NCBI GenBank assembly: GCA_010356995.1 | Contig: ML996712.1 | Coordinates: forward strand, 50,794 to 70,793 | Length of the DNA: 20,000 bases | Direction: 5' to 3' | Source: Trichodelitschia bisporula | Taxonomy: Eukaryota | Shown: piece after piece, positions 557 through 20,000 of the stretch | Layout of the letters: the number at the start of each line of letters is the position of its first letter | Numbering within the stretch: position 1 is the first letter of the stretch | The notes under the pieces: generated by a model | What the model was told of the DNA's origin: nothing | The model's database searches: none | What the model saw: only the letters and a program-made list of their open reading frames with translations | Made by a program: the position numbers and the translations under genes

Positions 557-1376
557 CCACATTTACACGGACAGGATCACAGCTTTCCCAACTCGGCAAA
601 CCGCGCATCAAAGTCCATTGATCACCCACGGATGACTAGGTGCCAGGATCGAGGAACGATCAGCAGGAAGAATCCAATATATGACAGCGAACGCATGGTA
701 ATCGCCTTGACAGGACATTTATCGTTCGCGCGTTCGCGATGTATATTGCTTCACGACGGTGGCTGGGGGTCCGGCCCCGAGCATGCGTTTCTGTTTAGAA
801 TTAGTTCTACCATTTGCGTCACTAACACTTGACAAGGAGCATTGAAAATGTAGGACCATTGTCATTCATAGACCTGCGGGAAAAGCATTGTTACATTTGT
901 AGACGTGAGGACATTTGGTGAGATACGTTTGCAGTCGAGACGACATGTCGTTAGAAGTCAAGCAATCGCGTCGGAAACTAGTTTCGCCGCACCGTCACGT
1001 CTTCAGGTTAACGCGGGTTAGGGGATTAACGCCACCGCACAGCGCCACAGCGCCACAGCGCCACCCCTCTATTCGACACACACATCATCTCACCCCCTCG
1101 CCAAATAAACAACCACCTCTCATCTCGCTCATACCACATCTCAACTTCTCAACTCACATGCCCAAACTAAGATTGTCGATCTCCCTAGCAATATCCCCTC
1201 GGCAAAGACCCGCACAGCAAAAATCACCACGTAACCTTGCATGTTGACACATGGGCCACAAAGCCCACAACTGAAATTATTCACACACCGAAGCCTCAAA
1301 CCCCAAGGCTCATCTCCTACTATACACATCCCATCACCCCCCCAATCCGCTTTTCGTCATCTCCATCTCCATTCCT

Positions 1377-2184
1377 CTAAGCCTCAACCTCAAACCCCCC
1401 CTCCACGGCCGGGAATTCCCCCTCCACACCCGGGCCGTGCGAGTGCCCGCCCATACCGCTCATACCGCTCATACCACCCATAGCCGGCTGCGGCGCCGGA
1501 GCCGCAGGCTTAGGCGTCGCGGCGGCAACCGGGGTCACGGCCTTGGGGGGCGCAGCAGGAACAACAGGGGGCTTGGGCGCCGGCGCCGCAGCGACCGGGG
1601 GCTTCGGGGCCGCGGCCACGGGCGTGGGCGCCGCGGGCTTGGGCACAACAGCAGCAGCGGGCGTGGGCGCTGCAGCTGCAGCGGGCGTGGTAGGCGCCGC
1701 ACCCGGGAAGGTCGTGAAGGGCGGGGCAGGCGCGCCGCCGCCGAAGCCGGGCAGACCACCGGGAACGGAGCCAGCGCCGAGGCCGCCGAGCAGGTCGAGC
1801 CCGGGGATCATGGGGATGCCGCCGGTGCTGCTGAGCCAGGTGCTGAACTGCGACACCTCAGTCCCGAGACCGGTCAGGATGCTGTCGAAGGTGAAGGTGG
1901 TGTTGGCGGGCATGAAGGCGCCGAGGATGCCGCCGATGGTGGCGCCGAGGGTGGCGAGGAGGCCGCCGCCGATAATGGCGGCCTCCCAGTTCAGGGAGGT
2001 GGTGGCGCTGGTGCCGTTGGCTTGGGTGATGGTTAGGGCCATGGAGGGGTCTGCGGGGTTAGCTGGGCTTGAGGGGGGGGTGGGCGTGGGACGAACATTG
2101 CTGGGCGCGCTTGTGGAGCGGGGAGGCATCCACGGCGGCAGCGGCGGCCAGGACGGCCGTAACGGCGTTGGCGATCTGAACCAT
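1377..2184 (-). CDS. Secreted Pro/Ala-rich protein of about 253 aa; exons 2184-2097 and 2050-1377
   Basis: ATG at 2184 gives MVQIANAVTAVLAAAAAVDASPLHKR-AQQ (signal peptide plus KR Kex2 site). A 46-nt intron at 2096-2051 (GTTCGT...GCTAAC...CAG) joins it in frame to ORF 1377..2129. A Gly-rich hydrophobic segment, Pro/Ala low-complexity region and Met/Gly/His tail follow. Confidence 0.85.
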
Positions 2185-2283
2185 TTCTAAGACGTGCGAA
2201 AAGACGGTGGGAGCGACTGAAGCGAGTGACGAATACGAAGACGGCGGCGGATGGTCTTTGAATGGCGTTCCGCAGGGCGCATC

Positions 2284-2290
2284 TTATATA
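2284..2290 (-). promoter_or_regulatory. Putative TATA box of the secreted-protein gene
   Basis: TATATAA on the minus strand about 100 bp upstream of ATG 2184, in otherwise GC-rich DNA. Confidence 0.55.
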
Positions 2291-4577
2291 TGCCGTACAG
2301 CGCACGGCGCCTCCCGCGTGGCATCAATGCGCCCACCGAACAAGCCAGGTACGCGAAAGGCTATTCAACGCTTCATCTGCGGGGACCGGGGCCGCACAGA
2401 GAGCGACGGCATAGCACATGGTGCGCGCAGGCCCGCCCGGCATCAGGCGCAATACCCTACTGCTCACGTTGACCGCCCTGATCCGGCCTGCAAACCCGAT
2501 TGCAATGGTGGACCAGCGTACCGGACCTGCACTCTCCGCCACCGCCTCGTTTATCCCAACACTCGTGGTGCTGGGCGTCCGAGGGGCCAATCCGCGGTCG
2601 CGGAGGGTGTTTGTCTGCGACGTCGAGATGAAGCTGTTATTGGTCTTTGGTGTGGGGGATATACAGTGCGTCCGAGCCTGAGCCCGAGCCCTATGGGTCG
2701 TTGGGCGAGGCTTGGCGGCTTGTTTCGTTTGGCACGGAACGAGCAATGCTTGTGGTGATGCGACGCGGGGTGGAGCAAGAGTCGGGATGCCGATCGGGCG
2801 TTAGGAAGAACACATACTCCACTTTCATGCGGAATGGAAGCTGCACAAAAATTACGTCGGACGCGCGTGTGGCGTGTAATCACGATAGGCGAAGAGGGCG
2901 TCGGAAGCGAGAACCCTCGGAAAGCCCTAACCCCCCGGCTCGTCCGTGGAATTCTCGAAGCCTCAAAGGCAGGCAGGGCACGCCATCCACGCGGAACACC
3001 AATCGGCGGGGAACACCAAGCGATCTGGGCAAGACAGGCGATGAGGCGAACTGAGCCCTCAAGCGAAATCTGGGAATCACTTTGCGGCGACATCAGGGCC
3101 ATTCGGCGGTTTTCCTGGATAGACCGCGAGCTGATGGTGCTTGCAGCCCTCGGTACATTCATGTCACAGCGGGCGGTGGAGAGATTTCCACGCGGGGTTG
3201 TCGATCGACACTGGGACCTCGCCTGGTCAGCGCAAGGCGCGCCCGGATGCGGCAATGGCGTCGTTCGGATATCCCGCTGGTGACTAGCGGCAGCCGGCCT
3301 GCCGTCGACCTCGTGCGAGCCCTCAGGGACTAGCTCGGTGTCGTCCCACAGGCCGTCACTGCGTCCGCGACGAGAAGCAAAGTAGCCTGCATAAGGATCT
3401 GTATACGAAGCCTTGCGTAATCCACCGCCTGCTAAGATGCGCCGAGGCGGCTGCGCTACCCCGCTTTGCGTAGATCCGGGGAAGCGGGCGAGAGCGTTCG
3501 TGAACGACGGCTGCGCGCCAGGCGGATAGAGTTTGGACCGCAGAGTACCGAGTTCCAGGGGCGATGGCGCTCATCGGGGATCTTAGGCGGGGTGCATTGC
3601 GTGCACAAGGCCTGTGGTGGGATCGATGCAGCGTGTGGAGGGTGCATAATTCGCTCGAGCGCTATAAGAGCCTTTCAGCGTCGTTCGCCATATACCCTTG
3701 TTATTAGCGGTTCGTAGCGGGCGGTGAGGCTGATTGAGGACAGAAGCCCTGGTGGATGCGGGCCCGGGCGTGCCGATTGATTCGAGCTAGATTTCCGCGT
3801 TGAGGTTGAGCGAATGAGTGAAGCTTCTGGGTAGGTATATTTCCGTGGGTGACGGGCCGACGGCGGCAAATATCTGGGTTCGACCTCAAATTGCTGAGAT
3901 GCAGGCCATTCGTCGGCGGATATCAGTCCGCGAAGGTGAAGATGCGAACGCGGCCTTCACAGATGAAGCAGAGAAACGAGTATGCAAGAATGATGAAGCA
4001 GATAGTAAGGCGTTCCACGCGGAGAAGCCGGACAGATGCCGCATGAGGAGCATACTCAATCGACGGGCCGCATTCGGGAGAGAAGACGCTGGAGCTTAGA
4101 GCAGACGAGATACTTTGGAATTCACAAGGTGAAAAATGGATTCCGCGCGGACAGGCGGCTAGACGCTGGGTAGGAAGCACCGCAACTGCAAACCTGGAGT
4201 CGAGAGCCGGCAATCACGCTGCAGACGAAACTGAGGCAAGGCGGCGCGGCGAGATGACGATGTTCGTCGTCCTCTTCCCTTGACCGTTCAGAGTCACTTA
4301 CTCTATCTGTTGGCACTGGGTGTTCAGTCAGTGCTCCCCATGTTGTCAAGCATCTGGAAGCGATATGGTATACTTGCAAGAGGTTCGCAGACAGAGGAGA
4401 ATGCCATTCGGCCATTGGAGCAGCAGACATACATTCCAGCGTAAGTACTTCTTACACCTGATAGTCTCTGTCAGCAGTCGTACATCTAGCATCTCATAAG
4501 TACTTACATCAAGCGCGTTCCACTCAGGCGAGGTGTTGTGGAAGTGAAGATGAAAAGTGGTGTTCAAGTGAAGGTGA

Positions 4578-4621
4578 AAAGAAGAGATTTCGCAATGTCA
4601 AAGAAGAGATTTCGCGATGTC
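4578..4621. repeat. 22-bp tandem duplication (2 copies, 1 mismatch)
   Basis: AAAGAAGAGATTTCGCAATGTC followed by AAAGAAGAGATTTCGCGATGTC. Confidence 0.9.
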
Positions 4622-4751
4622 GCAGAATCCCTCATCAATGTCGTCATCATCAGCCCCTCATACCTCGCCATCCCTTTCACGTTTAGGCGAAGGGATCATA
4701 ACCCATGGCATTAAGAGCGCGCACAAAAATCAGTCCTCTACCCCCAAACAT

Positions 4752-5981
4752 CTACGGCTTCAGTAAAACCTTCCCCATCGTCTTCCTCCCCTCAAGATCC
4801 TCATGCGCCCTCGCAACCTCCTTCAACGGATACACATCATGCACCCTAACATCCACCCCCTTCGCCACCATATCCCACAACTCCTTCGTATATGCTTCCC
4901 ACTCCTCCCTCTCCGCAACATACCCCATAAGCGTCGGCCTCAACAGCTTGATATTCTTCGCCGTCAACCGAAAGAGAGCCACCGGCTCCACCGGTCCACT
5001 CGCATTCCCAAAACTCACCAACGTGCCCTTCCGCGCCAAAACCTCGAGATCAACGTCAAAAGTCGCCTTCCCCACGCCGTCAAACACCGCCGCCACGCCC
5101 TTCCCTCCCGTAGCCTCGGCGACTACACGCTTGATCTCCTCCGTCTCATACCCGCACACAACATCCGCCCCCAGCTTCCGTGCGACGCCCTCCTTTCCCT
5201 CCCCGACCGTCGCAATAACCTTCCCGCCCAGAATCTTCACCAACTCAACCATCAACCCGCCCACGCCCCCTGCGGCGGCGTGAACGAGGATCCAATCCCC
5301 CTTCTTAACTTCATACGCCTCGCGCACGAACGTCAGCGCAGTGAGACCCTGCAGCAGCGCGGCCGCCGCGACGTCGCCGCCCACGCCCTCGGGGATCTTG
5401 GTGGCCATCGCGGCCGACGCGAGGGAGTATTCCGCATACGTCCCTTCGCCCATGTACGCGACCCTATCGCCCGGCGTGAGGCCGTATATGTTGCCGGATC
5501 CGACGGAGAGGACGGTGCCGGAGGCTTCGCGGCCGAGGATGTAGGGCATTTTGGGGGCGGGGTACAGGCCGGTGCGGAAGTACCTGGGTTGGTTTAGCTT
5601 AGGGGGTTGGGGGTTTGGGAGAGGAGGGGGGGGAGCCTACGTGTCGATATAGTTCACGCCGATGAACTCGTTCTTGACGAGTACTTGTCCTTTGCCGGGC
5701 GAGGGGACGGGCGCGTCGGGCGTGTATTCCAACACCTCTCGGCCGCCGGTTTTGTAGATTACGACTGCGGGACCGGCTTTGGGAATTTCGCTAGCCATTG
5801 CGCGGGAGGCTGAAAAGCTGCGATGGGTCGAAGGGAGGCGTGTGGGATTGAGCTGTGCGGTTAAGGCGCGGAGACGAAACGAGGTATCTGAGCGGGTTGA
5901 AGCGACGCGAAGACGAGACGAGGAAATCCAGCGGGTTGGAGCGACGCAGAATGGTAGCTGGAGGACCGCTCGGACAGACAT
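4752..5981 (-). CDS. ZTA1: NADPH:quinone oxidoreductase, zeta-crystallin-like (MDR superfamily); exons 5981(or 5798)-5641 and 5583-4752
   Basis: GVNYIDT|YFRTGLY is restored across a 57-nt intron at 5640-5584 (GTAGGC...GCTAAA...CAG). Family motifs include PYILGREASG, LLQGLTA, HAAAGGVG (NADPH binding), FDGVGK, FGNASG, AHEDLEGRKTMGKVLL. Confidence 0.93.
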
Positions 5982-6431
5982 ATATGTTGTTTTGGGGAGG
6001 AAGTGAGGTTTATCATGCGCAAGCTGTGAGGTTTGTCATACACAAGCTATTTGGTGAGGGTGGTGGGGCGGTGGGGTGGGGCCGCCGGGACGGCCGGGTA
6101 GCTACCGTAATGCCAGGTAGCTAATGCGGGGTTAGGCTAAGGCCGACGGCGTGGCTTACCGATGCGCGCGGTGGGGGCCGCGTGCCGAAGCGGCGGGAAT
6201 CACCATCGGCGTTAAGGGACGTGGCTTGCATTTGAAACATGATAACGCCGATCGGGACGAAGAATGGACGCGGCTGAACTGAAGCTTGATATCACCGCTC
6301 GGGATTCAGGATTAGATTCTACGGTACGTTGTACGGATGTAGACGCTCGGGATTAGATTCCTACGGCGCAGATGCTTAGTATTAGACTCCTACGGTGTAG
6401 ATACTTCGGTGATGTTCTGATATCTCGGCCT

Positions 6432-7947
6432 TTACCCAACCAAATCAACCACATCCTCCGGAAACCCCCCCCACAGCAGCGCCTTCGCCGGGACCCTTGC
6501 ACTCACCGGACTCAGCACACGCAGCTTCTTCTTCCCCTCATCCACATCCGCGACATACACGTAGCCCATCACACTCGCCATCCTGATCTCATCCGCGCTC
6601 TCACTCGGGTCCGCGTGTGTAACAGCGAGGAGGCTGTTTTGTAGAGCTAGAGATGGGGTGATCTTGTCTTGGGCGCTGCCGTACACTTCGGGCTCGTACT
6701 CGTCGTCGTCGTCCGCGGTGGAGGAGGCGCCGGGGTCGAATGCAGAACTCGTCGCCGCTGAAAAACATTAGCTTTTGCCCGAACGGTAGAAGCGAGAAGG
6801 GAAGGGAGGGGGGCCTACGGCCTGAGACGCGGAATATGGATGTTGAAGCGAAGTCGAGCATTTGCGTGTATGGCGAGAGGGTAACGGCGCCGCGCCCAAA
6901 AAAGTACTCGCGTATCTGCGCCTGCCGTGCTGCGCGCATCCAGCTCTCATCGCGGTCTACACATCCACCGCTTTTGTCGAGTTTCAGGATGGAGGTTGGG
7001 CTGCCCGGGGGATAGAGCTGTTTGAGGGAGGAGTAGAGGCGTTCGGAGCCGAGGACGATGAGGGTTGTTACTGCGCCGTTAGCTAGGTAAAAGAAGGGGG
7101 AATAGAACCACGAACCCGAGAACTCGCTCACAATGTACTGAATAAGCTCATAGCCTCCTTTACCGCTGGCGACAGATCCAGACGTATCAACCACACACCC
7201 CCCCGCCCTAACATCCCCATCCTCATCCAGGCGACTCGTAACCGCCAGTGCCAACCTCGTCACCAACCCCTTAAACAACCTCGCATTCTCCTCCGGCACC
7301 GCACTCCCCAAATGATACACAAGCGGCATCTTAACCGGCACCACACTCGGCCCAGAGATAGGACTACTCCCCCACCCCTCCTCCACATCCACCAAACTCG
7401 CAAACGTAGCCGCAGATAACGTGCCCGGCACCGATAGCATGCCCATCCCCGGATCCAAGTTCACAACGACGGTCTGCCTCCGTGCTTTCACCGCATACCC
7501 AGTCAATATCCTCACCAGACTCGTCTTCCCACTCCCCGCCGGCCCGACCACGCACACCCGTGGCCCTATCCCCCCTCCCATCTCCGCCGCGTTCCTCATC
7601 CCTTCGAGCGCGAAATGCAGATTCGCATACTGCCCCATCGGCGTCTCCTCCGCCACATACTCCCCATCCGCGGCACCGGTTATCTCGAGCACGCACCCGT
7701 GCCAGGTGTACACAGCCCCCTTGGCGTGCTGGAAGTTGTAGGGGACTTGGGGGGCGAGTTCGGTGCCGAAGAGTTCGGCGGTGCCGGAGAGGAGTTTTAT
7801 GGTTAGGGGGGAGTGCGGGGGGGATTCGAAGCGGTACTCTGTGCGGGGGGGGAGGGTGTGCGTCCTTGATGTTGGGGAGGGGGCGGAGGTGGGGGGGGGA
7901 GCGTTGGAGAGGGTTAGGCCGGGGAGGGTGAGGCCGGGGATTGACAT
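6432..7947 (-). CDS. CLP1: mRNA cleavage/polyadenylation factor Clp1 (polynucleotide 5'-kinase family), about 469 aa; exons 7947-7116, 7070-6819, 6757-6432
   Basis: Motifs EYRFE, GTAELFGTEL, YVAEETPM, Walker A GPAGSGKT, NLDPG..PG, LVLGSERLY-like, KSGGCVDRD, IREYFFG and C-terminal GYVYVADVD. Introns at 7115-7071 (45 nt) and 6818-6758 (61 nt) have GT, GCTAAC/GCTAAT and CAG signals, and splicing gives a continuous frame. Confidence 0.95.
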
Positions 7948-8351
7948 TGTGGTGATGTAGACGTAGGTGGAGGGGGAGAGTGGTGGGGGTGGTGGTGTCG
8001 CGGTGCGACGGGGCGTTCGCTCTGTTTACGCTTACGAGATTGAATCTCCGTGCGATGCAATGGCGAAATTTGCAGCGAAAAGGGTATGTAAACGACGGGG
8101 CGGGTATTGAGTTGCGTGGAATGCGTTGCGTGGTCGACGCGTTGTGTGGAATGCGGAGGAGCTTGCGGAGGAGCTTTGCGGCGTTAAAAATTCTTGCCTC
8201 AGGCACCAATTTCTGCCTCATCACAACCGGGCCGTTCATGGCATCCACCACAAACGCAGCGAGCGCCGCCAACGAGCTTCAATAATAGTGCTACTGACTG
8301 CCTGCCATTACTCGCCTTCACCGCACCGCGCCATCATCAGCTATCTGCAGC

Positions 8352-9840
8352 CTAACCCCCCCAGCACTCCTCCGGACACCCACCAGTCCCCCCCTGCCGC
8401 ATCACAGTCACAAGCACTCCAATGAGGAGCACCAATCCCGCCCCAGCCCACACCAACATCCTCCCATCCAATACCGGCGGCCGAGTAACGCTCGCCAGCG
8501 CACCCAACTCCTCCTCAAACCGCTTCGCCATCCTCTCCTTCGAAAAAAGTTCCACAACCCTCTCCCTCCCCCTCCGTCCCATCCCCCTTAACCCCTTCTC
8601 ATCCCCCTCAAGCACCCCCCTCATAACCCGCGTCCACTCCTCCACCGCCCCCACATCGCGTAACCACCCTGTCTCCCCCTCAACCACCGTCTCCGTCGGC
8701 CCCCCCTCATTCGCCGACAGCACCGGTACCCCGGCGAGCATAGCCTCCAGCGGCACAATACCAAAATGCTCATTCCGGGGCGTGTACACCAGCAGCCTCG
8801 CCGAGGCCAAGAGCGTCGCCTTCAAGCCGCTCGGGACGGAGAGCAAGAACAGGACCTGAATGTTCGCCGGAATGGCCTGGGCGCTCACGATCGTGCGCGC
8901 CGTTGCATGGGCCAGACGGAGCGACTCGGCCAGCGCGGCAAGCTCGTTGTGATACTGGACGTTTTCGGGCACGCGCGCATCGTACCCGCCTAGCTCTTTA
9001 GTCAACATCCCATATCGGCGTAAGAAAAACCCACCCGCGATGACGAGCCGCGTGTTCGTGCGCTCGGCCTCTGAAAGGCGCGCGAAGGCGCGGATAGCGA
9101 GGCCTATGTCTTTTTTGCGCTCGAAGCGGTTTATGCTAAGCAGGACCCGCGTGTTGGGCCATAAGTGCCCCGTACTCTCCGGCGTGTTCTTTGTGTCGAC
9201 GCAGGGGTACACGACCCGTGGCTTGCGGTCCTTTAAGCGGGGGAATACGGACGCGAAGACACCGAGCGTGAAGTTGCTGTTGACGACGATGCCGTCGGCA
9301 CAGCCTGTGCTCCAGCTCTCGAGCGCGTCGAATGGGTATCTGTACACGCGCTTGAGCAGCCCGCCCTTCTGCGCGAGCAACTTGTCCGGAAAATGGCAGT
9401 AGAAGAGTAGGCGCGCTGGGGGATACACCCAGCGCAGCAGCGGGACGCCCGCGCTCAACTGGTCCACTACAAACGCGCTTGGCTTCAAAGCGCGCAGCTC
9501 GCCCGTGTACACGATTTGCAGTATGAGGTGCACCTGCCGCAGGATAGCACATAGAATCGCGAAACGGCCTAGAATAGACGGAGGCACGACGTTGCCGCGG
9601 ACGCGCACGTCGAGGGTACCTTTTTACTCAGCTACGGACCTCAGTATGTGCCACCGCACCTGGGGTAGACGTACCATCGCGCGCCTCGTCGAAGCAGTGT
9701 GTGGGGTCGCGGTGCGAGGTGAAGATTGTGACTTTGTGCCCGCGGTCTTGGAGGCCGACGGCTGCATCGATGATGAGCCGTTCTGCACCGCCGATGCCTA
9801 GATCGGGGTGGAAGAAGACTACGTGCTGTGGCGGGGGCAT
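8352..9840 (-). CDS. ALG2: Alpha-1,3/1,6-mannosyltransferase Alg2 (GT4), about 462 aa; exons 9840-9675, 9619-9035, 8989-8352
   Basis: Motifs [73 protein letters not shown] (EX7E) and a C-terminal hydrophobic anchor. Introns at 9674-9620 (55 nt) and 9034-8990 (45 nt). Confidence 0.96.
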
Positions 9841-10069
9841 GGTGGTGTTCCGTCCTCCGTCTCCTCCGCGAACTCCGATGAAGCCGCGTGGAAGCTGGGG
9901 ATGACGTAAGCCAAACATGCGACACTATCACGTGTAGGCATCACAACCCCGATGCGACGACGTGCTGCCCGACTCAGCGTTCCATCTCTGCTTGCATTGG
10001 AAAGTGACTGAATGCCACTGCCATGCCAGCAGCCTTACCCTTCTCTCAACAAACCCACTCCCGGTGACG
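9841..10069. promoter_or_regulatory. Shared divergent promoter region between ALG2 and VPS15 (229 bp between ATGs)
   Basis: Head-to-head start codons at 9840 (-) and 10070 (+). Contains CRE-like TGACGTAA (9902-9909) and E-box CACGTG (9929-9934); motif function is inferred only. Confidence 0.6.
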
Positions 10070-13000
10070 ATGGGCCAGGGCTACTCTCTAACCACGCTAT
10101 CGGCCGGCGCCGCGGGCATCGACGTGCCCGAGCTATCGGACCTCAACTACGAAAAGTCGCTCGGAAATGCGCGGTTCATGAAATGCATCCGCGCGCGCCA
10201 CAAAGACGGGTTGGTGGTGGCCAAGGTGGTGATGAAGCCGTATCCCAGCCTGAAGCTGGATGACTACGTCCGGACCCTGATAGGTATGTTTGCCTGTCTT
10301 GTGGGTAGCAAGTCTAATAAAGCAGATGAGCGGCGGGTATTGAATGAAATACCGAATGCGCTGGGTTATCATCGGATCATTGAGACGGGGACTAGTGGAT
10401 ATCTCGTCCGCCAGTATATCCATAGCTCGCTTTACGATCGCATGAGGTAGCCTATTCTGCATATCATGGTATCCTCCCTTCTAACTCGCATCCCCAGCAC
10501 TCGCCCGTTCCTCGAAGATATCGAGAAGAAATGGCTTGCCTTCCAGCTGCTCTGCGCGGTGCGCGACTGTCACGCCCAGAACCTCTACCACGGCGACATC
10601 AAGACTGAAAACATCCTTGTCACGTCCTGGAACTGGCTGTACTTGGCTGACTTTTCGTCCTCATTCAAGCCGACCTACCTCCCCGAAGACAACCCGGCCG
10701 ACTTTTCCTTCTTCTTCGACACCTCCGGCAGGCGGACATGCTACCTGGCGCCGGAGCGCTTCCTCGGGCCCGGCGAAGATGCCACCGGAAAGCCGCCCAT
10801 CAACTGGGCCATGGACATTTTCAGCGTCGGGTGCGTCATCGCAGAGCTGTTCCTCGAGACGCCCATTTTCTCCCTTAGCCAGCTATTCAAGTACCGCTCA
10901 AAGAAGGAGTACGACCCGGAGCACACGCACCTCAACCGCATCGCCGACAAGGACATCCTCGACATGGTCGCCCACATGATCCAGATCGACCCGCAGGATC
11001 GGTACACGGCCGAGGAGTACCTCAACTTCTGGCGTCACAAGGCGTTTCCCGAGTACTTTTACAGCTCGCTACATCAATACATGTATGTCATCACCGACCC
11101 GACGTCCGGCCGGCGGCCCATCACGGCTGGGAACGAGAATCTCGGCGAGGCCGACGACCGCATCGACCGCGTGTACGACGAGTTCGATAAGATCTCGCAG
11201 TTTTTGGGATACGAGAGCGTGGTCAAAGGCTCGCGCGACCGCTACGGCATCGGTTCGGACACCGTGCTCTTCCCGCTGCAGGTCGACATCCCCAACAACC
11301 GCCACCAAGCATCAGCGTTGAACAACAAAACCGCCGACGACGGCACTCTCATCTTCGTAACGCTCGTCGTGTCCTCAATCCGCAGCACCGCGCGCGCCAC
11401 AGCCCGCGTCCGCGCGTGCGAACTCCTCCTCGCATTCGGCGAGCGCGTCACCGACGAAGCAAAGATGGACCGCATCCTACCGTACCTAGTCTGGCTCCTA
11501 AACGACAAGGCAGACATCGTCAAATGCGCCGCCATACGTACGATAACGCAGCTGCTAGCGCTCGTCCAAGCCGTGTCCCCGATCAACGCGTACATCTTCC
11601 CCGAGTACCTGCTCCCGCGGCTCCAGCCCTTTGTCCTCGGCGTCAACTCCAAACCCAGCCCATGGGTGCGCGCCACGTACGCATCGTGTCTGGCTACCCT
11701 CGCGACCACGGCGTCGCGCTTCCTAGGCATGATGCAGGCACTGCGCGCGGACGGGACGATCCCGACGAGTGATCCCGAGGCGGAGGATGGCACGGTCAGC
11801 CAGTCCGTGTATCAGAACCTATTCGACCTCGCGCGCGAAGATCTTATGGGGCAGTTTGAAGCGCAGACGAAGGCGCTGCTTACAGACTCCGACTCGGCGG
11901 TTCGGCGCGCGTTTTTGGGGTCTGTGTCGACGTTGTGTGTGTTCTTTGGTACGGCGAAGGCAAGTGATGTTATTTTGAGCCATCTCAATACCTATCTGAA
12001 CGATAGAGATTGGATGCTCAAATGCGCGTTCTTTGAGACGATTGTGGGTGTGGCGACGTTTGTTGGCGCGCCTAGCTATGAGGAATTCATCCTCCCGCTC
12101 ATGATCCAGGCATTAGCGGACCCGGAAGAGGCCGTGGTCGAGCGCGTTCTGCGTTCTTTTGCCTCCATTGCCGAACTTGGCCTCTTTCAACGCTTCAAGA
12201 CGTGGGAGCTTGTTGACGTCGTCGGCCGCTTCATGATGCACCCTAACATCTGGATTCGCGAGGCCGCCGCGCAGTTCATCTCAGCTGCGACTACGTATCT
12301 GATGCCAGCGGACTATCACAGCGTCATAATACCGCTCATCCGCGTCTACTTGAAGGCCTTACCGACGGACCTCAGTCACCTCGCTCTCCTCGATGCGCTG
12401 AAGAAACCCCTCCCGCGATTGGTGCTCGAGATGGCGAGCAACTGGGCGTTGAAGTCGGAGCACAGCCTCTTTTGGAAGACGGTAAACCAGCAGCACACAT
12501 TCTCATTTGGGGCTGGGAGCACGCTGCCGTCCATCTCTGCGCGAGATCTCGGTCCAAAGGCCCTTGGCCGCGTGCGTAAGAATGAGGAGGACGAGAACTG
12601 GATTCAACGGTTGCGCAATGCGGGCATGACTCCTGAAGATGACTTTAAGCTGCTTGCCATGAGGGAGTACATCCGGCGCTCAGCCCATCGCAAGTCACAA
12701 GAGCACGCCGACTCCACACCCTCCAAGTTGAACGGCATCGTAGCACTGAAGGACCTCGGTATTGCGGCACAAACCATCTTCTTCTCGCAAGACCAGGATC
12801 TATTCCGACAGAACACGGCACAGATCACGTCTACCGATGGCCACCGCACCATCGCCGAAGCGCTGCAGGACGCGTCGTCACCGACGCCCGAAGCCAAACT
12901 CAAACCGCCCGCAATCGCCACTGACCTCCCCCTCCCCTCTCCAAGCCTCAGCGTCCCCAATTCCGGCCTCCAAACCCCCGCCGAAGGTCCGCATCCCCCG

Positions 13001-14761
13001 CGCCCTCCCCTCGCCACCTCCCCTGTCAACTCCGTCCTCAGCCTCCGCCTCAGCGACCAAACCGTCAACCGCAAACCCAGCGCCATAACCCTCCTCCCCC
13101 GCACCGCCAGCAACAGCACCAAAGCCGTCGCCGAAACAAGCACAACCCCCGCCACCGCCTTCGCCAAACTCGAATCCCTGCCACCCCAAAAACCCCCCCT
13201 AACCATGGCCAAAGAAGACCACCGTCTCCACCCCTCGCACCCCAAACACGCCTCCGCCCACACCTACGAAGGCCACGACCCCTCCGTCCTTACCCTCCTC
13301 GACTCCCTGTATCTCGACTCCTTCCCAGTGGATTACACCGAATTCGGCCCCATGGTCACGCCCCGCACCACTCGCCGCGCGCCCATCCCCCGCTCCGCGC
13401 CCGGCTCTTCCGCTCCCTGGCGCCCGGATGGCACGCTCGTTGCCATGCTCGGTGAACACACAGCTGCGGTCAACCGCATCGCCGTCGCCCCCGACCACGC
13501 GTTCTTCATCACAGGCAGCGACGACGGCAGCGTTAAGATATGGGATAGTGCGAGGCTCGAGCGTAATATCAGCCACCGTGCGCGGCAGACACACACCCAC
13601 GCCGAGGGGGCGCGCGTCACGGCGCTCACATTTATTGAGGACACGCACTGCTTCGCATCCTGCGCGTCCGACGGGAGCGTGCACGTCGTGAAGGTCGACT
13701 ACGCCGAGCCCAGCGCGCACACCCCCACCCCCCACTCCGCCAGCGCCGCCCGGTACGGCAAACTCAACCTCATCCGCGACTTCACGCTCCCTGACGGACA
13801 ACACGCCGTCTGGGCCGAGCACTACAAGAGTGACGCGAGCAGTTTACTTCTTCTAGCGACGAATAAGTGCCGCCTCCTCGCCCTGGAACTCCGCACCATG
13901 ACCCCCGTCTTCACACTCCAGAATCCGCTCCCGCACGGCCCACTCACGTGCTTTGCGGTTGATAGGCGGCATCACTGGGTGCTCCTCGGCACTTCACACG
14001 GTGTTCTCGATCTCTGGGATTTACGCTTCCGGTTGCGGCTACGTGCTTGGGCGTTCCCCGCGCATGCGCCTGTGCATCGTATCGCTTTGACGCCGGGGCG
14101 TGCGGCGCGGCGGAATAAAGTTACGATTGCGGGGGGGACGGGGGGTCCGGATGTCAGCGTTTGGGATCTGGAAAAGGGCGTTTGTAAGGAGTTATACCGC
14201 GCGCATGTCCCCGGCCACCCAGCTCTAGGGGCCCGTGAACTCAAGGCGCAGCTCGAGTTGGTGGACTTGGATGCCAAGGGCGAGGGGGGCATGTTATCCC
14301 GTTTCGGGCCCGCGGGTCTAGGGTCTGAAAACGCGCCGCTGGGACCGGATCGCGGCGTGCGTGCCCTGGCGCTGGGGACGCATGTGCCTGACGATGGGTC
14401 GGAGGCGAGGGGGCATTTTATTCTTGCGGCGGGACCGGGGGGGAAGGTTCGGTATTGGGATTTGGCGGCGCCGGGGGGGAGTGGAGTCGTAAGTGGGGGG
14501 GGGGGGGAGGGGGCGGCTGGTTTTACGAGCAGTACGGTTGGGGAGGTGGGGGTTGTGGTTGAACGGGCGGGGAGTGATGGGAGGGATGGGAAGGATGGGA
14601 AGGGCGGAGGGAGTGGGAGGAGAGGGGGGGTTGTGGCGTTGCAGCAGAGACATTTGCTTAGGGGGCATTTGGATGTTGTTACTGATGTTGCGTTGTTGGA
14701 GTGTCCGTATGGGATGGTGGTTAGTGCGGATCGGGGGGGGGGGGTGATGGTTTTTGCTTAA
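10070..14761 (+). CDS. VPS15: PI3K regulatory subunit Vps15 (pseudokinase, HEAT repeats, WD40), about 1532 aa; exons 10070-10283, 10326-10446, 10498-14761
   Basis: N-terminal MGQGYS (myristoylation-type Gly2), SLYDRMS|TRPFLEDIEKKWLAFQLL, HGDIKTEN, LPEDNPADFSFFFDTSGRRTCYLAPERF, HEAT region (HLNTYLNDRDW) and WD40 region (EHTAAVN...TGSDDGSVKIWD). Introns at 10284-10325 (42 nt) and 10447-10497 (51 nt). Confidence 0.97.
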
Positions 14762-15708
14762 GGGATAGATATAGGCTCAATGGAATTGTGATGCTTGATG
14801 CTCAGTTGCGTGTGATCGCCGGCTTTACGTGTACCGAGATCGCTACGGACTTCAACTCTTGCTCCGTTTCCCAAGTTCCCTCCTAAAAAGGACTTATTCA
14901 CCTGTCGTACGCGGGACACGTAGAAGAAGGTAAGATGACTATCCCGTGAGCAAAAGACACGCGAAAGGGTATTAAGGGAAAGAAATTGATTCGTTGTACT
15001 GACGCTGGATGATGAGGAGAAGTTGATGTGGGGAAGGTGTGTATTGAGTTAGTGCAGCCATAACTCACGTATAGAGTCATTGGAGCAGGTTCAGTGGAAT
15101 ATTATAGCAAGAGCATACCATGTACAGTTGGAGACCGGGACCGGTGCACACCGACTGCAGAGAAGGAGGCTTCGGTGGAGCCTCACACTTAGTCTCGCAG
15201 TCCCCCGGACCGAGTCAATCTCATGGTCTTTCCACTCAGCTTTTGCCTACGCTGCCTGCTGGGCGTTGTCTACCCACACCAGAAGTGAACAAATAAACTA
15301 GGCAGACCTAAATACCGGTGGGGTCTTCCCTGGGTCCTGCTTCTAATGTATGCTATTATCATGCCAATGGAAACTGATGTAGGCATGGAGGATCCTGAGG
15401 CGCAAAGGCGTCTAGAATCATGTAAGATAACTGTGTGGTAGACTCAGAAGGAGTATCTTAGCATGGCATGACGTGCGCAACAAAGAGCAGGAAGGCGCAA
15501 TGGAGGACCACGCACAGCATATATCTAGCAGCGATAGTCCTCGGACTCCCTTTCTTCCCCTCGTATTTCTTCAATGCTTCATAATTTCCATGCTGTCAAG
15601 CACGTGCTGTGAGCCCTGTCTTACATCAGCCTCGCTAAAAGCCGTGGGGGGCGAGTTCTACACTTTTCGGGGTGGGTCATTGGATCCCTTATTTATGAGG
15701 CCTGAGAC

Positions 15709-16019
15709 TGTTGTAATCCTGGCCCTAACCCACAAGAACCTGGCCGCCCCGCCCGGACGGCTTGCGGGCCGGGCCGCACCGTCCTTTTGTGGGAAGGGTG
15801 CCTGAGGCGGTCAGCCTCGAGATGAGACGCGTGCCAAGCGGGGCACCGAATGGGGAAAGTGGGTGTTGAATTTGTGGTGGCAACCTGGGGTGGCTGGAGT
15901 GGAGCCAGGAGACAGGGGTCGTCTCCCGGCGATGTATATAGTCAGCTCACTTCCCACTGCTAGTTAGTCAAGCAACTCAGTCAAGTTCACACTTCATTTT
16001 AACAGTGGGCGATACAACA
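15709..16019 (+). mobile_element. Probable solo LTR (311 bp), copia-type termini
   Basis: Begins TGTTGTA and ends TACAACA (7-bp terminal inverted repeat, TG...CA), with an internal TATATA at 15935-15940. Flanks GAGAC/CTTCA do not form a target-site duplication. Confidence 0.6.
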
Positions 16020-16265
16020 CTTCAATATTTGCACTGCGTGAAGGTGGGTCACTTGGAACATCACAAGCAATACATAAGGTAGTCGAGGTGATTATCGCAT
16101 GCTAGCTCTGGTGGCAATTATCGTACAAATCGAGAAAACACCTGTACCCAGTGTCAAATCCTGTAAAGCCTCCACACCGAACTCCTCGCTCTATCCGTCT
16201 CTAAATCCACTCCGTACTGTTATCATGCTTCCATGTAGAAGACCTAAGCCCCTAAAACCCGGCGC

Positions 16266-16736
16266 TCACTGCTCCTCCTTCCTGAGCACCTTCACACGAG
16301 GATGCGCGGGAGCCGGCACTGCAACCGGGACCGACGCTCGCGCCTTCTTCGAGGGAGTCTGGTCAAGCAGCTTCCTCAGCGCCTCGCGCTGGGCCTTGAG
16401 CACATCGGCCGGGAACTGCGGCTCGACAGCGGTAGTGACCTTGGAGGGAGTTGTAGCACGCCCGATCGGCTTCGTATTGCCGGAGAGATGGGCCAATGGC
16501 TTCCGGTTGATGCCGTCGGTCTTTGTGTTCTTGCGGACTGTGTTGGACTCCGGAGTTGTGGCGCGGCCCGGAGGGAGCCACAGCGGCTTTCTGCCCGCGC
16601 TCTTAGGCTCCGGGCTCTTCGACGCACGGCTCGGGGATGGCGTCTTGTCCCGGGTGTGGGATCCCGGCTGCTCGGTGCTGAAAGTAAGGCGCGGCTTTGT
16701 GAAACCTCCGGGAGCTAAAGCCTCAACGTCGTGACT
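16266..16736 (-). pseudogene. 5'-truncated fragment of a basic, Ser/Pro/Thr-rich disordered protein gene
   Basis: Stop-free GC-rich frame of about 156 codons with no ATG start. The frame runs directly into the left hAT TIR, and the ORF track's TTG start lies inside the TIR. Confidence 0.45.
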
Positions 16737-17322
16737 CAGACCGGTCAATAATCAATATCAGATTGAGTATTGATTGGATTGATCGCCAAGATATTGCCAA
16801 GACCTCTTTCAATCCGATCCGATCTGCTCATGGATTGTAGAGGATTATCAATATATTATCAATATCTCTACCCAAAAGCTTCGATAAGCGTCGATAAGCG
16901 CCTAAAAGTAGGTCTATCGAGTACTTTATATCGCCTTCTATAAGCTGCTACGAGCTTCTATATGTATATAGCAAACGTGGATTTGTGGCCAATTTGTTGG
17001 TACATTTGATGTACGAATTTATCTCTTACCATAAGGCTTCCCAGCAACCATTCCAAAACTTACCCCCACTTAGCTCCGGTACGCAGCTTCCTCATTTACA
17101 CGTCCAATATACGCGTCAATTATGGTGCCAAGCTATTTCCGGGCCTTTCCGAAGCTCTCCGAGCTCTCTAACACATATATTTCTACATGGTGATTTGACG
17201 CAGTACGCACTTCTCCTCATAGGGGCGAAACTAAATCCGGCCTAGCGCCAGCTAATAGGAGCCCCCACTCGCGGTCTCCATCATCTCTCATCTTCCAGAT
17301 GATCCCTCGTCTCTCACATCAC

Positions 17323-17530
17323 TGTCACGGTATGACACCCGGTTTCTGTTGCTCCATGGGCTCGCACCATCACCGGGTTTGTATGGGGCTTGGCGCGGTG
17401 CCAAGCCGCCACACTCACACTCGTACACCAGGCCTACTTACCCGCAGTCCCTGACACCTTTACTCCGTAGCTTTACAATCTACGTCTTACCCACATCTTG
17501 ATCGTGCATGCGTGATTGTTGACGGTGACA
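17323..17530. mobile_element. Probable solo LTR (208 bp) nested in the hAT element
   Basis: Termini TGTCAC...GTGACA. The right end coincides exactly with the point where the transposase reading frame is cut. No matching TSD (ATCAC/ACCTC). Confidence 0.55.
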
Positions 17531-17531
17531 A

Positions 17532-17750
17532 CCTCACCCAATCAGCAAATCAGCGTTGGCATGGTGGTGCGAAGAGTCTCAAGTGCGCACCTATCCTCAT
17601 CTTGCTCGCATGGCAATCGATGTCATGTCCGTTCCATCGTCAGCGGATGAGAACGAGCGGGTATTTTCTGGAGGTAGACGCACGCTGTCATGGGACCGAG
17701 CATCGCTGTCACCTCAGCACGTGGAGATGAATGAGTGTATCGTCAGCTGA
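17532..17750 (+). pseudogene. hAT transposase C-terminal dimerization domain remnant
   Basis: PHPISKSALAWWCEESQVRTYPHLARMAIDVMSVPSSADENERVFSGGRRTLSWDRASL...EMNECIVS* fits the hAT pattern WW..YP.L..MA.D....P......ERVFS. The TGA falls where a Trp is commonly found (EC..SW), and the rest of the transposase is absent. Confidence 0.9.
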
Positions 17751-18146
17751 CACTCAGAAGGGTTTATTGGGACTTTCTTTGCTGGTGACGATGAGACCAT
17801 GGTTGAGGTTTTGAACGATTAGCATGGTTACGTGATGTAGATTGACAATAATTGATAATATATTGAGATTGATTGCCAAGACTCGATCTCTTGGCAATCA
17901 ATACAATATGGATCGGATATTGGATTGATTGATTATTGACCGGTCTGGCCTGTGGCTGAAACTGGGTAAGGCTGAACACAGCCACCGCTTTCCAACATAT
18001 ACCCTCATTGCTCAGTCTGACACATGTTCACACTTCATATTAACAGGAAATACCTAGGAAATAACATCAAGCCATAGGAAACAGAGGAAAAACTAGAGGA
18101 GAGCGCGAATAGCAATGAAAGCCAACTGTGGCAGCAACAGTGGTGT

Positions 18147-19949
18147 TCAACAAAGTTCTCCGTCCCAGTACCGTTTGGATATACAGCGTGCCTTGATCTT
18201 CCCGACTCCAACCCTTTTGTATGATTTCTCCGAGGTCATGTCTCCCACAAGCAAAATGTAGCAAGTCTTCTCAGAATCTTGGCTCTCACCACTGCTCTCC
18301 CTCCCAACAATGACACATTTTTGGATAGGAATACTAGCATCGGTCATGGTATCGAACCACAAAACCCCAACATGCTCAGACTTCGCATCCAGAATGAAAT
18401 GTTCGCTTCCTTGTTGTTCCATTGTGTAGTCTTTGAGTTGCCTAATTCGGATGGACAATACACATTGCTGCTCATAAGAAAATTCAAAGGCTCCATTCCT
18501 TGGAACTTCGAGAGACAGAGACCATGTTTCGAAGAAAAGAATTTGGGAATATCTCATCCAGGACCACGATGGCAACTTTTGGGTGTCCACAACATTTTTC
18601 CCGTCATTGCTTTGGGGGCCAGGTCGCCAAAGAAGAAGTCGAAATCGGAAGCATTCGAAGATGCCGTATCGGTGTCCAGTGCGGAAGACATCGCTCATTC
18701 GCTTCATCAAGCTCAAAATCGCAATGTTCCGGTCTGATTCATTGGTGAGTTGATACTGCGCATATTTCTCAAAAAGGTGCTGAATGAAGTCAAGAGAGCG
18801 CATGTAGCCCGAAGAATAGAGACGTTCCGGAAATCTTGGGTCAAGAAGAAAGTATTCCTTGATCTCGCGACTACAATAAATCAGTCAAGTTAGAGCGAAC
18901 AAAAACACCAAGGATAACCAAATCGAGCCTTACCCTTTGAGTCTAATAAGGTTTTCGCAGCGTACACCGTCGCCACACTCAAAGTACGTATAGCTTTCAG
19001 TGAAATGAAGAGTTCGGCGAGACAGAACTCTTTCTTGCAGTACCCAGGCTCTTTTATTGAGTGGGGCGGCATCCACATCCTCTTCGAAGTTTTGAGAGAC
19101 TTGGCTATGACAAACATATTGGGGTGTTTGAAAAGGTGTTCCGTCTGCGTCATAACTTGTAGGACGCGGCGCAAGAAAGCCTTGCTTCCAATCCACAGCT
19201 GAGCTGGCGGCAAGGGTACAGAAAGCTGAACCGAAGATCTGTCCCATGAGCGGAGCTTCAATTTCGAAGTCTGGGTTGCCCTCGTTTGGAATCTGTTGTT
19301 TTATGCAGAGAGCGTCAATCCAAAGGTATTTCTTCCCGAGTTGGCGTGTGACTTCAACAGCGTCTTGAAATGTCTTCGGCAAGTCGCTCAGAGGGAATCC
19401 TCCCTTTCGAGTTTCGAAATTTTCGGCGGTGGTGCAAATTTTCCTCTTCTCTTCATCCGTCAGGCGACCCCAGCAGTGAGAAAGCGCAATATAGCCATCT
19501 GCATCTGACAGAACGCTCTTTTTTTCTTCCGTCTCCCACAGCTCCAACTCCGTGGAATCCGAAGGACCGACAAATATGACCCTTGTCGGCCAGAAATGTT
19601 TCTTTGAGTGACATTCGTGATTTTCGTCACATTTTTTGAGCCATTGACGCAGTAATGGAATGTACAAAGAATTCTCGGGCTGTGTATGACAAGACTGGAT
19701 AGCATTGAAGAATTCAGTAGCAAAGCCACCGTCCACCTGGGGTGTCCAGGGCTTTTGGTTGCATATTTAGTCACAATTTGACAAAGGTCAGAAGGGTGAT
19801 ACTTACTTGCTACATCCGCAAACAGGTCACGGTCAGCAATCATCACATCTCGTCCATGTCAAGTACGGCCACTCACTTCCTACACCAGCAAGCAGGCCAC
19901 GGTCAGCAATCATCGCATCCCGTCCATGTCAGGTACGACCACTCACCAA
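18147..19949 (-). CDS. HET-domain (heterokaryon incompatibility, TOL-like) protein, 5'-incomplete; exons (off window), 19949-19947, 19879-19877, 19809-19807, 19736(or 19751)-18934, 18870-18147
   Basis: HET motifs LLRQWLKKCDENHEC, WPTRVI, YIALSHCWG, LPKTFQDAVEVTRQLGKKYLWIDALCI, MGQIFGSAFCTLAAS, PLNKRAWVLQERVLSRRTLHF, plus C-terminal PSWSW and YKRVGVG. A 63-nt intron at 18933-18871 (GTAAGG...CTAAC...TAG) joins the two ORFs in frame. The large exon has no ATG before the HET core and an in-frame TAA just upstream, so upstream exons are required. Confidence 0.9.
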
Positions 19950-20000
19950 CTACACCAGCAAACAGGCCACGGTCAGCAATCATCGCATCTCGTCCATGTC
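19801..20000 (-). repeat. 70-bp tandem array (at least 2.9 units, cut by the window edge); each unit is a 67-nt intron plus a 3-nt exon
   Basis: Period 70 (19801, 19871, 19941). The minus strand reads TGTAG|TTG|GTGAGT...GCTGAC...TGTAG|GAA|GTGAGT...GCTGAC...TGTAG|CAA|GTAAGT. Confidence 0.92.

Follow-up and report, generated by a model that had tools for sequence, protein, structure and literature searches.

The 20,000-nt stretch of Trichodelitschia bisporula analysed here (assembly GCA_010356995.1, contig ML996712.1, positions 50,794 to 70,793 of the forward strand; hereafter the window, with positions counted from its first letter) ends in a tandem array of near-identical short introns separated by single codons, which lies on the minus strand directly 5' of a gene encoding a HET-domain protein. 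We suggest that this array is probably an intron-plus-codon minisatellite in the coding region of a HET gene subfamily, where it would encode a variable N-terminal linker. On this reading, the array occupies one conserved phase-0 position, between a short exon carrying the ATG and the main HET exon.

Tandem Repeats Finder identified a 70-bp tandem repeat at 19801-20000 with 2.9 copies, 88% matches, and zero indels, and a 33-nt core of the unit had three matches in the window and none in any of 200 shuffles. Read on the minus strand, a unit comprises an intron of 67 nt and then exactly 3 nt, and both full units have a GTGAGT donor, a CTGAC motif whose branch A lies 23 nt before the 3' end, and a TAG acceptor (Table 1). 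This layout, with the spacers TTG, GAA, and CAA, is exactly the one that a first-pass annotation had described from the letters of the window, and the observation is confirmed. There are 8 differences in 67 positions between units 2 and 3 and 2 in 51 between the partial unit 1 and unit 2, and the spacers TTG and GAA differ at all three of their positions. No further copy of the unit was found in the remaining 19.7 kb of the window, using the core pattern and reading of the sequence. The units show no unusual structure, as units 2 and 3 (-18.6 and -11.3 kcal/mol) fold no better than their shuffles (z of -0.25 and +0.80; 200 shuffles each).

The reading frame downstream of the array (P0001, 19766-18930) matched the HET family PF06985 (E 1.4e-27, 97.2 bits against a cut-off of 22.5) at residues 92-245, covering profile positions 1-146 of 146, and the HET-domain protein is ~515 amino acids long. 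The first in-frame Met of this frame is residue 174, which lies within the HET domain. Therefore, a start further upstream is needed, in agreement with the earlier claim that the HET exon has no usable ATG of its own and that upstream splicing is obligatory.

Splicing of the array was assessed with contigs, not reads, of four public runs compared with positions 15000-20000; runs with small word shares (X5 and X6) and the parts of the stretch without RNA cover were not used. X1 is a DNA run, and X3 and X4 come from one sample. The label of X3 and X4 as RNA was a guess, and these runs were treated as RNA because they skip three GT..AG introns that X1 keeps, i.e., 15671-15735 (+), 18871-18933 (-), and 19752-19806 (-), and because their depth is zero in the intergenic bin 18006-18172. 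The last intron of the array was removed via the acceptor AAG at 19752 (joint 19751->19807, 55 nt, CT..AC ends), with a depth of 64.8 in X3 and 152.9 in X4, and the contigs lacking it retain CAA and 21 nt of unit 3 upstream (side 24). Of the two acceptors that the first-pass annotation had offered for this intron, AAG 19752 is thus the one used in both runs, and CAG 19737 can be set aside. In addition, unit 2 (19946-19880) was excised singly in one X3 contig (67 nt, CT..AC ends, depth 28.3, side 20), giving TTG|GAA. This joint reflects splicing and not collapse of the repeat, because 67 nt were skipped and a collapse would skip 70. Joints of the array were absent from the contigs of the DNA run X1. 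A unit can therefore behave as an intron by itself, as had been predicted.

Another X3 record (depth 80.3) contained 12 letters between 19751 and the 3' end of a unit, which read in sense CGC TTG TTG CAA and continue into CCC TGG. Our reading is that four single codons have been joined here to the HET exon: the window itself would supply CAA and the second TTG, GAA would have been skipped, and the source of CGC and the first TTG would be two units that lie past 20000. One X3 contig had TTG|GAA and another lacked GAA (both being contigs of one sample), and the string without GAA fits skipping of this codon. We consider it very probable that the units are true introns, each spliced out individually, and that at least some RNAs retain their codons.

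The same build was found in metagenomes. A 28-nt probe had no matches, and a 24-nt probe of the core identified five metagenome loci, representing four distinct arrays (L001, L002, L003, and L005), without a single solitary copy. The period was 70 in all four arrays (by Tandem Repeats Finder for L002), and in sense the units consist of 67 nt, GTAAGT...CTGAC or CTAAC...TAG, followed by 3 nt. Some units contained internal indels of 1-17 nt (unit lengths of 51, 60-63, 66, 68, and 73 nt), and the spacers were always 3 nt; the junction pattern mis-split one unit of L002 (50 + 84 nt) and added a false last unit in L003, and the spacers there were taken from a stricter pattern and read by eye. Counting the window, five of five arrays had a PF06985 HET gene immediately following them, in the same orientation and in phase 0 (E 1.1e-26 to 4.7e-31 for the four metagenome genes). 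The exon following the array begins 1-2 codons before a conserved Trp in phase 0 (PW, TSW, TTW, DLW, and SSW), and each array, like that of the window, closes with an intron whose sequence is unrelated to the units. This exon has no ATG of its own near the start in four of the five loci, and in L002 an ATG stands right after the Trp. The proposal that the spacers are whole phase-0 codons is thus borne out by four other HET loci and by the RNA contig joining four codons to the HET exon.

Exons with the start codon were identified upstream of two arrays. In L002, exon 1 (MAFIQEQAPLWIHSNFTD) precedes the array in frame, has a GTATGT donor at its phase-0 end, and is homologous to the annotated N-termini of family members, e.g., MAPSDEQAPWIHHQFETTW and MAPSDEQAPWIHHQFETTWTR. 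In L001, exon 1 is MDSKQD, likewise in frame. Joining the spacer lists by eye, L001 would read through all junctions as MDSKQD-EDRFDLF-DLWEFF..., and L002 would read as exon 1, 33 single-codon residues rich in Glu, Arg, Ser, and Phe, and then TSWMPS.... The single codons of L002 account for at most ~32 of roughly 600 codons.

Relatives carry a corresponding stretch of protein. A W[IV]xxxF motif was found near the N-terminus in 14 of the 120 best homologues, and the stretch from this motif to the conserved Trp was 3 residues long in seven of the 14 and 8, 15, or 25 residues long in three others; the length was mis-measured in four of the 14 rows, which were left out with the exception of P0038, read directly. 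In P0038 (Logan/ENA, residues 17 to ~230), ~215 uninterrupted residues rich in Glu, Arg, Asp, and Phe occupy the position of the array, and these four amino acids are among those encoded by the commonest spacers AGA, GAG, GAA, TTC, and GAT (besides TGG, Trp). The linker of P0038 may have lost its introns or may represent the ancestral state. The lengths in relatives indicate that a variable-length linker at the array position is a trait of the family, and in some family members every codon of the linker is split from the next by an intron. We consider translation of the codon string as an N-terminal linker reasonably likely.

The splice signals of the units are protected from mutation. Among units of 67 nt (18, 17, 6, and 4 units), the donor and acceptor were the least variable parts in each of the four metagenome arrays (0-0.27 bits for the donor and 0-0.11 bits for the acceptor), and the spacer was the most variable of 68 three-nt windows in all four (1.17-1.72 bits, compared with 0.07-0.51 bits for the intron interior). 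The first-pass annotation had noted that splice signals are kept and that spacers differ from unit to unit, and both features recur in the window and in these arrays. In L002, GTAAG[TC] was kept in 31 of 31 consecutive units found with a strict donor pattern. A test matched for site class gave two mutated donor or acceptor cells in L002 against 30 expected. At G sites, the mutated fractions were 0 of 63 for donor and acceptor and 60 of 210 for the interior (p 1.7e-8), and at A/T sites they were 2 of 126 and 54 of 567 (p 0.0017). The consensus of L005 served as the ancestor in this test, and fixed differences between L002 and L005 raise the interior figure somewhat. The L002 array (3213-5389) is AT-rich, and its unit variants comprise 139 transitions and 7 transversions, a signature resembling repeat-induced point mutation, so that L002 can serve as a mutagenesis experiment performed by nature; the adjacent HET frame is intact.

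The spacers themselves contained no stop codons among ~73, with P of 0.03 under uniform codons and 0.002 under composition, and all were 3 nt long. The commonest spacers were all-purine (AGA 12, GAG 9, and GAA 8) or all-pyrimidine (TTC 7, TTT 4, TCT 4, and TCC 3). Higher-order periods of 140 and 210 bp were detected in L002 by Tandem Repeats Finder, and in L005 units with the same spacer were more alike than others (0.888 vs 0.858, permutation p 0.0035). These results indicate that the arrays grow at least partly by duplication of blocks made of units with their codons. Between loci, the unit consensus of the window was identical to those of L002, L005, and L003 at 52, 55, and 50 of 67 positions (75-82%), with 26-27 of 30 in the core, and to that of L001 at only 41 of 67; the adjacent HET exons were 52-64% identical in DNA and 42-49% at third positions (window vs L002, L003, and L005). 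The conservation of the core is partly due to ascertainment, because the loci were found with a probe of the core.

According to the proposed mechanism, the GTRAGT donor, the CTRAC branch site 23 nt from the end, and the TAG acceptor would make each unit a 67-nt short spliceosomal intron. The pre-mRNA would be transcribed through the array, and each unit would be recognised and excised as its own intron, probably sequentially because two spliceosomes cannot sit 3 nt apart. One codon would be left per unit, and the codons together would form the linker before the HET domain. A retained unit introduces an in-frame stop, so that full protein would arise only from fully spliced RNA. Slippage or unequal crossing-over within the 70-bp repeat would shift the number of units, and hence the length of the linker, and skipping of codons would leave the frame intact. 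The first-pass annotation had further supposed that expansion of the array and exon skipping could diversify an immune effector codon by codon, a role that is hypothetical. That the variation itself is selected seems doubtful. We also give little credence to a farther-reaching version, in which the array is an evolvable device: a minisatellite that is 96% intron would expand, contract, and reshuffle by recombination, its single codons would be under diversifying selection, and the linker would vary in length and sequence within populations. In this version, later loss of introns via recombination with spliced cDNA would freeze the codon strings as ordinary exons, which would explain the Glu/Arg/Asp/Phe-rich linkers of 8 to ~215 residues at the array position in relatives.

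Several observations weigh against an intron-plus-codon minisatellite that encodes a linker. The array leaves the window at 20000, and the ATG exon of this gene falls outside. The string CGC TTG TTG CAA does not match the window spacers TTG, GAA, and CAA unless GAA is skipped and two extra units lie beyond 20000, and a paralogue or another allele is a possible source of the contig. No full-length spliced mRNA was present among the contigs; the four-codon contig runs upstream into an unspliced unit, the TAG of which is in frame, and as assembled it is therefore non-productive. All RNA evidence consists of contigs of one sample, X3 and X4 being the same. L005 (2530-5484) is a paralogue of L002 with shared flanks from the same metagenome; its ATG exon has TAA where CAA would stand, and its frame is broken between 4657 and 4706. 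L005 is probably a pseudogene, though one that has kept a regular array of 23 units. The lack of stops among the spacers is weak evidence, because spacers are copied along with units, there are 20 distinct triplets, and the P values assume an independence that fails. In L002, unit similarity showed no link with the spacer (p 0.41 and 0.52). Variation is greater in the spacers than in the interior, though the array-specific intron positions that flank them do not vary within an array; candidate causes of the spacer variation are diversifying selection, a mutational hot spot, and constraint on nearly the whole intron. Finally, the depth over the units indicates that many more copies exist whose context is unseen. 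Summed contig depth over 19843-20000 was 579,989 in X1, compared with ~900-5000 in the neighbouring HET bins (~600x), and it was 25,492 in X3 and 53,300 in X4, compared with a few hundred to a few thousand; summed depth is not equal to copy number and was taken only as a sign of many further copies. In addition, 363 X1 contigs fit two places of the stretch, and a run with a different organism label (X7) had a 100-nt contig across the unit junction at 19895-19994 with three differences.

The anatomy described above is shared by a second reading, a splicing throttle, in which an obligatory string of splicing events keeps a dangerous cell-death protein low or conditional and the residues are incidental; the two readings differ only in what is selected. 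Retention of a unit leads to an in-frame stop in 66 of 73 units (median codon 6), and at the last unit of the window partly spliced RNA is about as abundant as spliced RNA (64.8 vs 80.3 in X3), as such a throttle would have it. The strong constraint on splice signals points the same way, and the excess of core conservation over that of the HET exons could mark the binding site of a regulator, although this conservation comes partly from the core-derived probe. We know of no regulator or condition-dependent splicing for this array. Moreover, a throttle does not account for the exact 3-nt length of the spacers, their lack of stops, and their being more variable than any other part of the unit, nor for the uninterrupted coding linker of like composition that relatives have at the same place. 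We therefore consider it unlikely that restraint of expression is what selection acts on, and prefer the intron-plus-codon minisatellite that encodes a linker.

The abundance of the unit in the source genome would also fit a non-coding satellite, i.e., a minisatellite in the 5' untranslated region or within one long intron, the splice-like signals of which would serve only incidentally and the spacers of which are never translated. Long arrays elsewhere (such as that behind the 939-residue antisense frame of Endocarpon pusillum described below), the lack of a productive full-length mRNA among the contigs, and the array kept in the pseudogene L005 are in line with this view. On the other hand, in four of five loci a start codon is lacking from the exon that follows the array, and the homologous ATG exon of L002 is in frame through phase-0 junctions. 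Neither the protection of donors and acceptors (2 mutated cells against 30 expected) nor the constant 3 nt of spacers between units with indels of 1-17 nt would be expected of non-coding repeats. A satellite of this kind appears improbable.

We rate as similarly improbable a pile-up of mobile introner-like elements, in which a dispersed, self-propagating intron would have inserted anew for every unit, leaving host codons in between as the spacers. In favour of this view, both DNA and RNA runs show high summed depth for introns that are almost the same and carry complete splice signals, variation in the spacers far exceeds that in the units, as it would in host sequence, and the unit consensus is better conserved than the coding DNA (75-82% vs 52-64%, window vs L002, L003, and L005). 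Random insertion, however, would leave exons of 6, 9, or more nt, and ~73 spacers are all 3 nt. The 140- and 210-bp periods and the spacer-unit link of L005 show block duplication, no solitary copies were present among the five probe loci (four distinct arrays), the window had no other copy in its remaining 19.7 kb, and excess folding was lacking. The first-pass annotation had posed the alternative of local duplication or a dispersed introner: the unit is indeed repeated elsewhere in the source genome, and the copies seen in context all lie in tandem arrays at HET genes (five of five arrays). Intron gain by tandem genomic duplication was also considered and rejected, as the duplicated block here is a whole pre-existing intron plus a codon and the spacers are not AGGT-bounded copies of an exon. 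In the model of Rogers, the new intron is reportedly made of duplicated exon sequence bounded by duplicated AGGT.

Three plus-strand frames are open across the array (19721-20000) and run off the window, and its plus-strand translation matched 12 'proteins' among 1.84 billion representatives, which are three-frame read-throughs of like arrays. These include a 'hypothetical protein' of Endocarpon pusillum (KAF7502341.1, 939 aa, ~40 units long) and an 'ATP-dependent DNA helicase' of Fusarium oxysporum f. sp. albedinis (KAJ0119875.1, 191 aa), which is made of a like repeat. A profile search with the antisense frames gave 10 proteins, mostly metagenomic, too few for a taxonomic range. A real protein on the opposite strand is extremely improbable and was ruled out, since unit lengths differ by non-multiples of 3 (51, 60-63, 66, 68, and 73 nt), which shifts the frame between units, and P0122 matched no Pfam family; in the window, the lack of TTA, CTA, and TCA on the sense strand is enough to explain the open frames. 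The database proteins made of this repeat look like annotation artefacts.

The positions of the array, the HET gene, and the neighbouring genes are listed in Table 1. The full-length protein of the window itself was absent among proteins of >= 488 aa in the collection (best identity 56%), and no candidate carrying its N-terminus was found among short protein fragments of 33-105 aa (query 19572-19751). The region 4752-14761 contains ordinary housekeeping genes, and the HET gene with its array borders a patch rich in repeats. Just downstream of the HET gene, 17529-17750 (+) matched part of the hAT transposase C-terminal dimerisation domain (PF05699, E 1.7e-12), and two further patches of high-depth repeats were present at 17338-17504 and 17949-17997, with some contigs carrying 49 nt of the latter in tandem. 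A 146-bp element at 15858-16003 is flanked by a 6-bp direct repeat, AGTGGG (15858-15863 and 16004-16009), and had a summed contig depth of 309,614 in X1. It is missing from the RNA contigs and from one X1 DNA contig, and its ends, AG..AC, do not correspond to splice sites. The element resembles a small mobile element that is polymorphic for presence or absence. At 15000-16500, X1 showed many single-base differences at about half depth (e.g., 440.6 of 883), and the RNA contigs had only the letters that differ from the window. The material would thus seem to contain two haplotypes or strains, the one that differs from the window at 15000-16500 being the source of the RNA.

Table 1. Features of the window and intron counts of the metagenome arrays
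Feature	Position	Strand	Remark
Unit 1, 3' 51 nt, acceptor TAG	19950..20000	-	array goes on past 20000
Single-codon exon TTG (Leu)	19947..19949	-	joined to GAA in X3 RNA contig, joint 19878->19946
67-nt intron, unit 2, GTGAGT...CTGAC...TAG	19880..19946	-	excised alone in one X3 contig
Single-codon exon GAA (Glu)	19877..19879	-	apparently skipped in one RNA form
67-nt intron, unit 3	19810..19876	-	retained upstream of CAA in contigs without the last intron
Single-codon exon CAA (Gln)	19807..19809	-	closes the 12-letter string attached to 19751 in X3
Last intron, 55 nt, GTAAGT...AAG, sequence unrelated to units	19752..19806	-	joint 19751->19807 in X3 and X4, absent in X1
Main HET exon, begins CCC TGG (Pro-Trp), phase 0	18934..19751	-	HET domain ~19493-19032; Pfam, RNA contigs
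Ordinary 63-nt intron in HET gene	18871..18933	-	joint 18870->18934 in X3 and X4, absent in X1
Last coding exon of HET gene, stop codon included	18147..18870	-	reading frame 18147-18884; aligns with C-terminal halves of homologues
Zn-dependent dehydrogenase	4752-5636	-	
CLP1	6601-8025	-	
GT4 glycosyltransferase	8352-9623	-	
VPS15-like kinase with WD40 repeats	10451-14761	+	
Metagenome array L001			7 introns in chain (2 diverged, 5 typical)
Metagenome array L002			32 introns in chain
Metagenome array L003			at least 8 introns, reaching contig end
Metagenome array L005			23 introns in chain

Up to 32 consecutive exons of 3 nt would be extreme for the recognition of splice sites, as they leave no room for exonic signals or for spliceosomes side by side. 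The arrays would also mean that an intron can multiply in tandem within a coding region without breaking the gene, unlike dispersed introners, and that the instability of a repeat is tied directly to the length and sequence of a protein in a family linked to fungal cell death and non-self recognition. If the array were indeed an evolvable device, it would represent a novel way for coding sequence to arise and a new kind of generator of diversity for non-self recognition in fungi. In practice, gene predictors will miss the true start of array-bearing HET genes, and public databases already contain proteins annotated from the antisense strand of such arrays. By the statement of a 2024 paper, functional microexons had been undescribed in filamentous fungi before it (PMC11121469).

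In the full-text literature searched, to which most subscription journals do not belong, no description was found of tandem near-identical introns with single-codon exons, nor of such arrays at HET genes. The Schistosoma micro-exon genes (MEGs) are the closest in logic, with runs of tiny symmetrical exons that can be skipped without a frameshift and give rise to protein variants (PMC4015677). MEGs encode small secreted proteins, in which as much as 75% of the coding sequence can consist of micro-exons (PMC4015677), whereas here the codons add at most ~32 residues and the host is a presumably intracellular fungal HET-domain protein. As in MEGs, the small exons are symmetrical and consecutive, with ~73 spacers that are all 3 nt, in phase 0, and in a row. 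MEG exons are ~6-36 nt long, and to our knowledge MEG introns have not been reported to be repeats of one another; in the arrays, by contrast, every exon is 3 nt and the introns are copies of one 67-nt minisatellite unit. Tandemly repeated exons in S. mansoni were reportedly described by Davis in 1988.

Fungal introner-like elements resemble the units in being near-identical short spliceosomal introns with complete splice signals and, to judge by summed depth in the case of the units, many copies (PMC4457414, PMC8469720). Like those elements, the units have canonical signals and are spliced: they carry GTRAGT, CTRAC 23 nt from the 3' end, and TAG, and unit 2 was removed alone. As far as the comparison reached, the units do not match the definition of these elements: introner-like elements are defined by copies in unrelated genes (PMC4457414) and have internal symmetry or structure (PMC8469720), whereas here all copies with visible context lie in tandem arrays at HET genes, with one-codon spacing and no excess folding. 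In Zymoseptoria tritici, tandem duplication within a gene accounted for under 1% of the gains of single introns (PMC4457414).

The small nucleolar RNA (snoRNA) host gene SNHG14 (SNORD115 and SNORD116) is alike in having tens of consecutive tandemly repeated introns in one transcript. Each of those introns bears a snoRNA and the exons are non-coding, whereas the arrays here leave in-frame codons, and L001, L002, L003, and L005 (28,536 bases) had no Rfam matches at the gathering score. The WD40, ANK, and TPR repeats associated with fungal NLR and HET proteins are kept alike, with a few hypervariable positions per repeat. Those repeats are wholly coding, whereas in the arrays at HET genes 67 of every 70 nt are intron and one codon per repeat reaches the mRNA.

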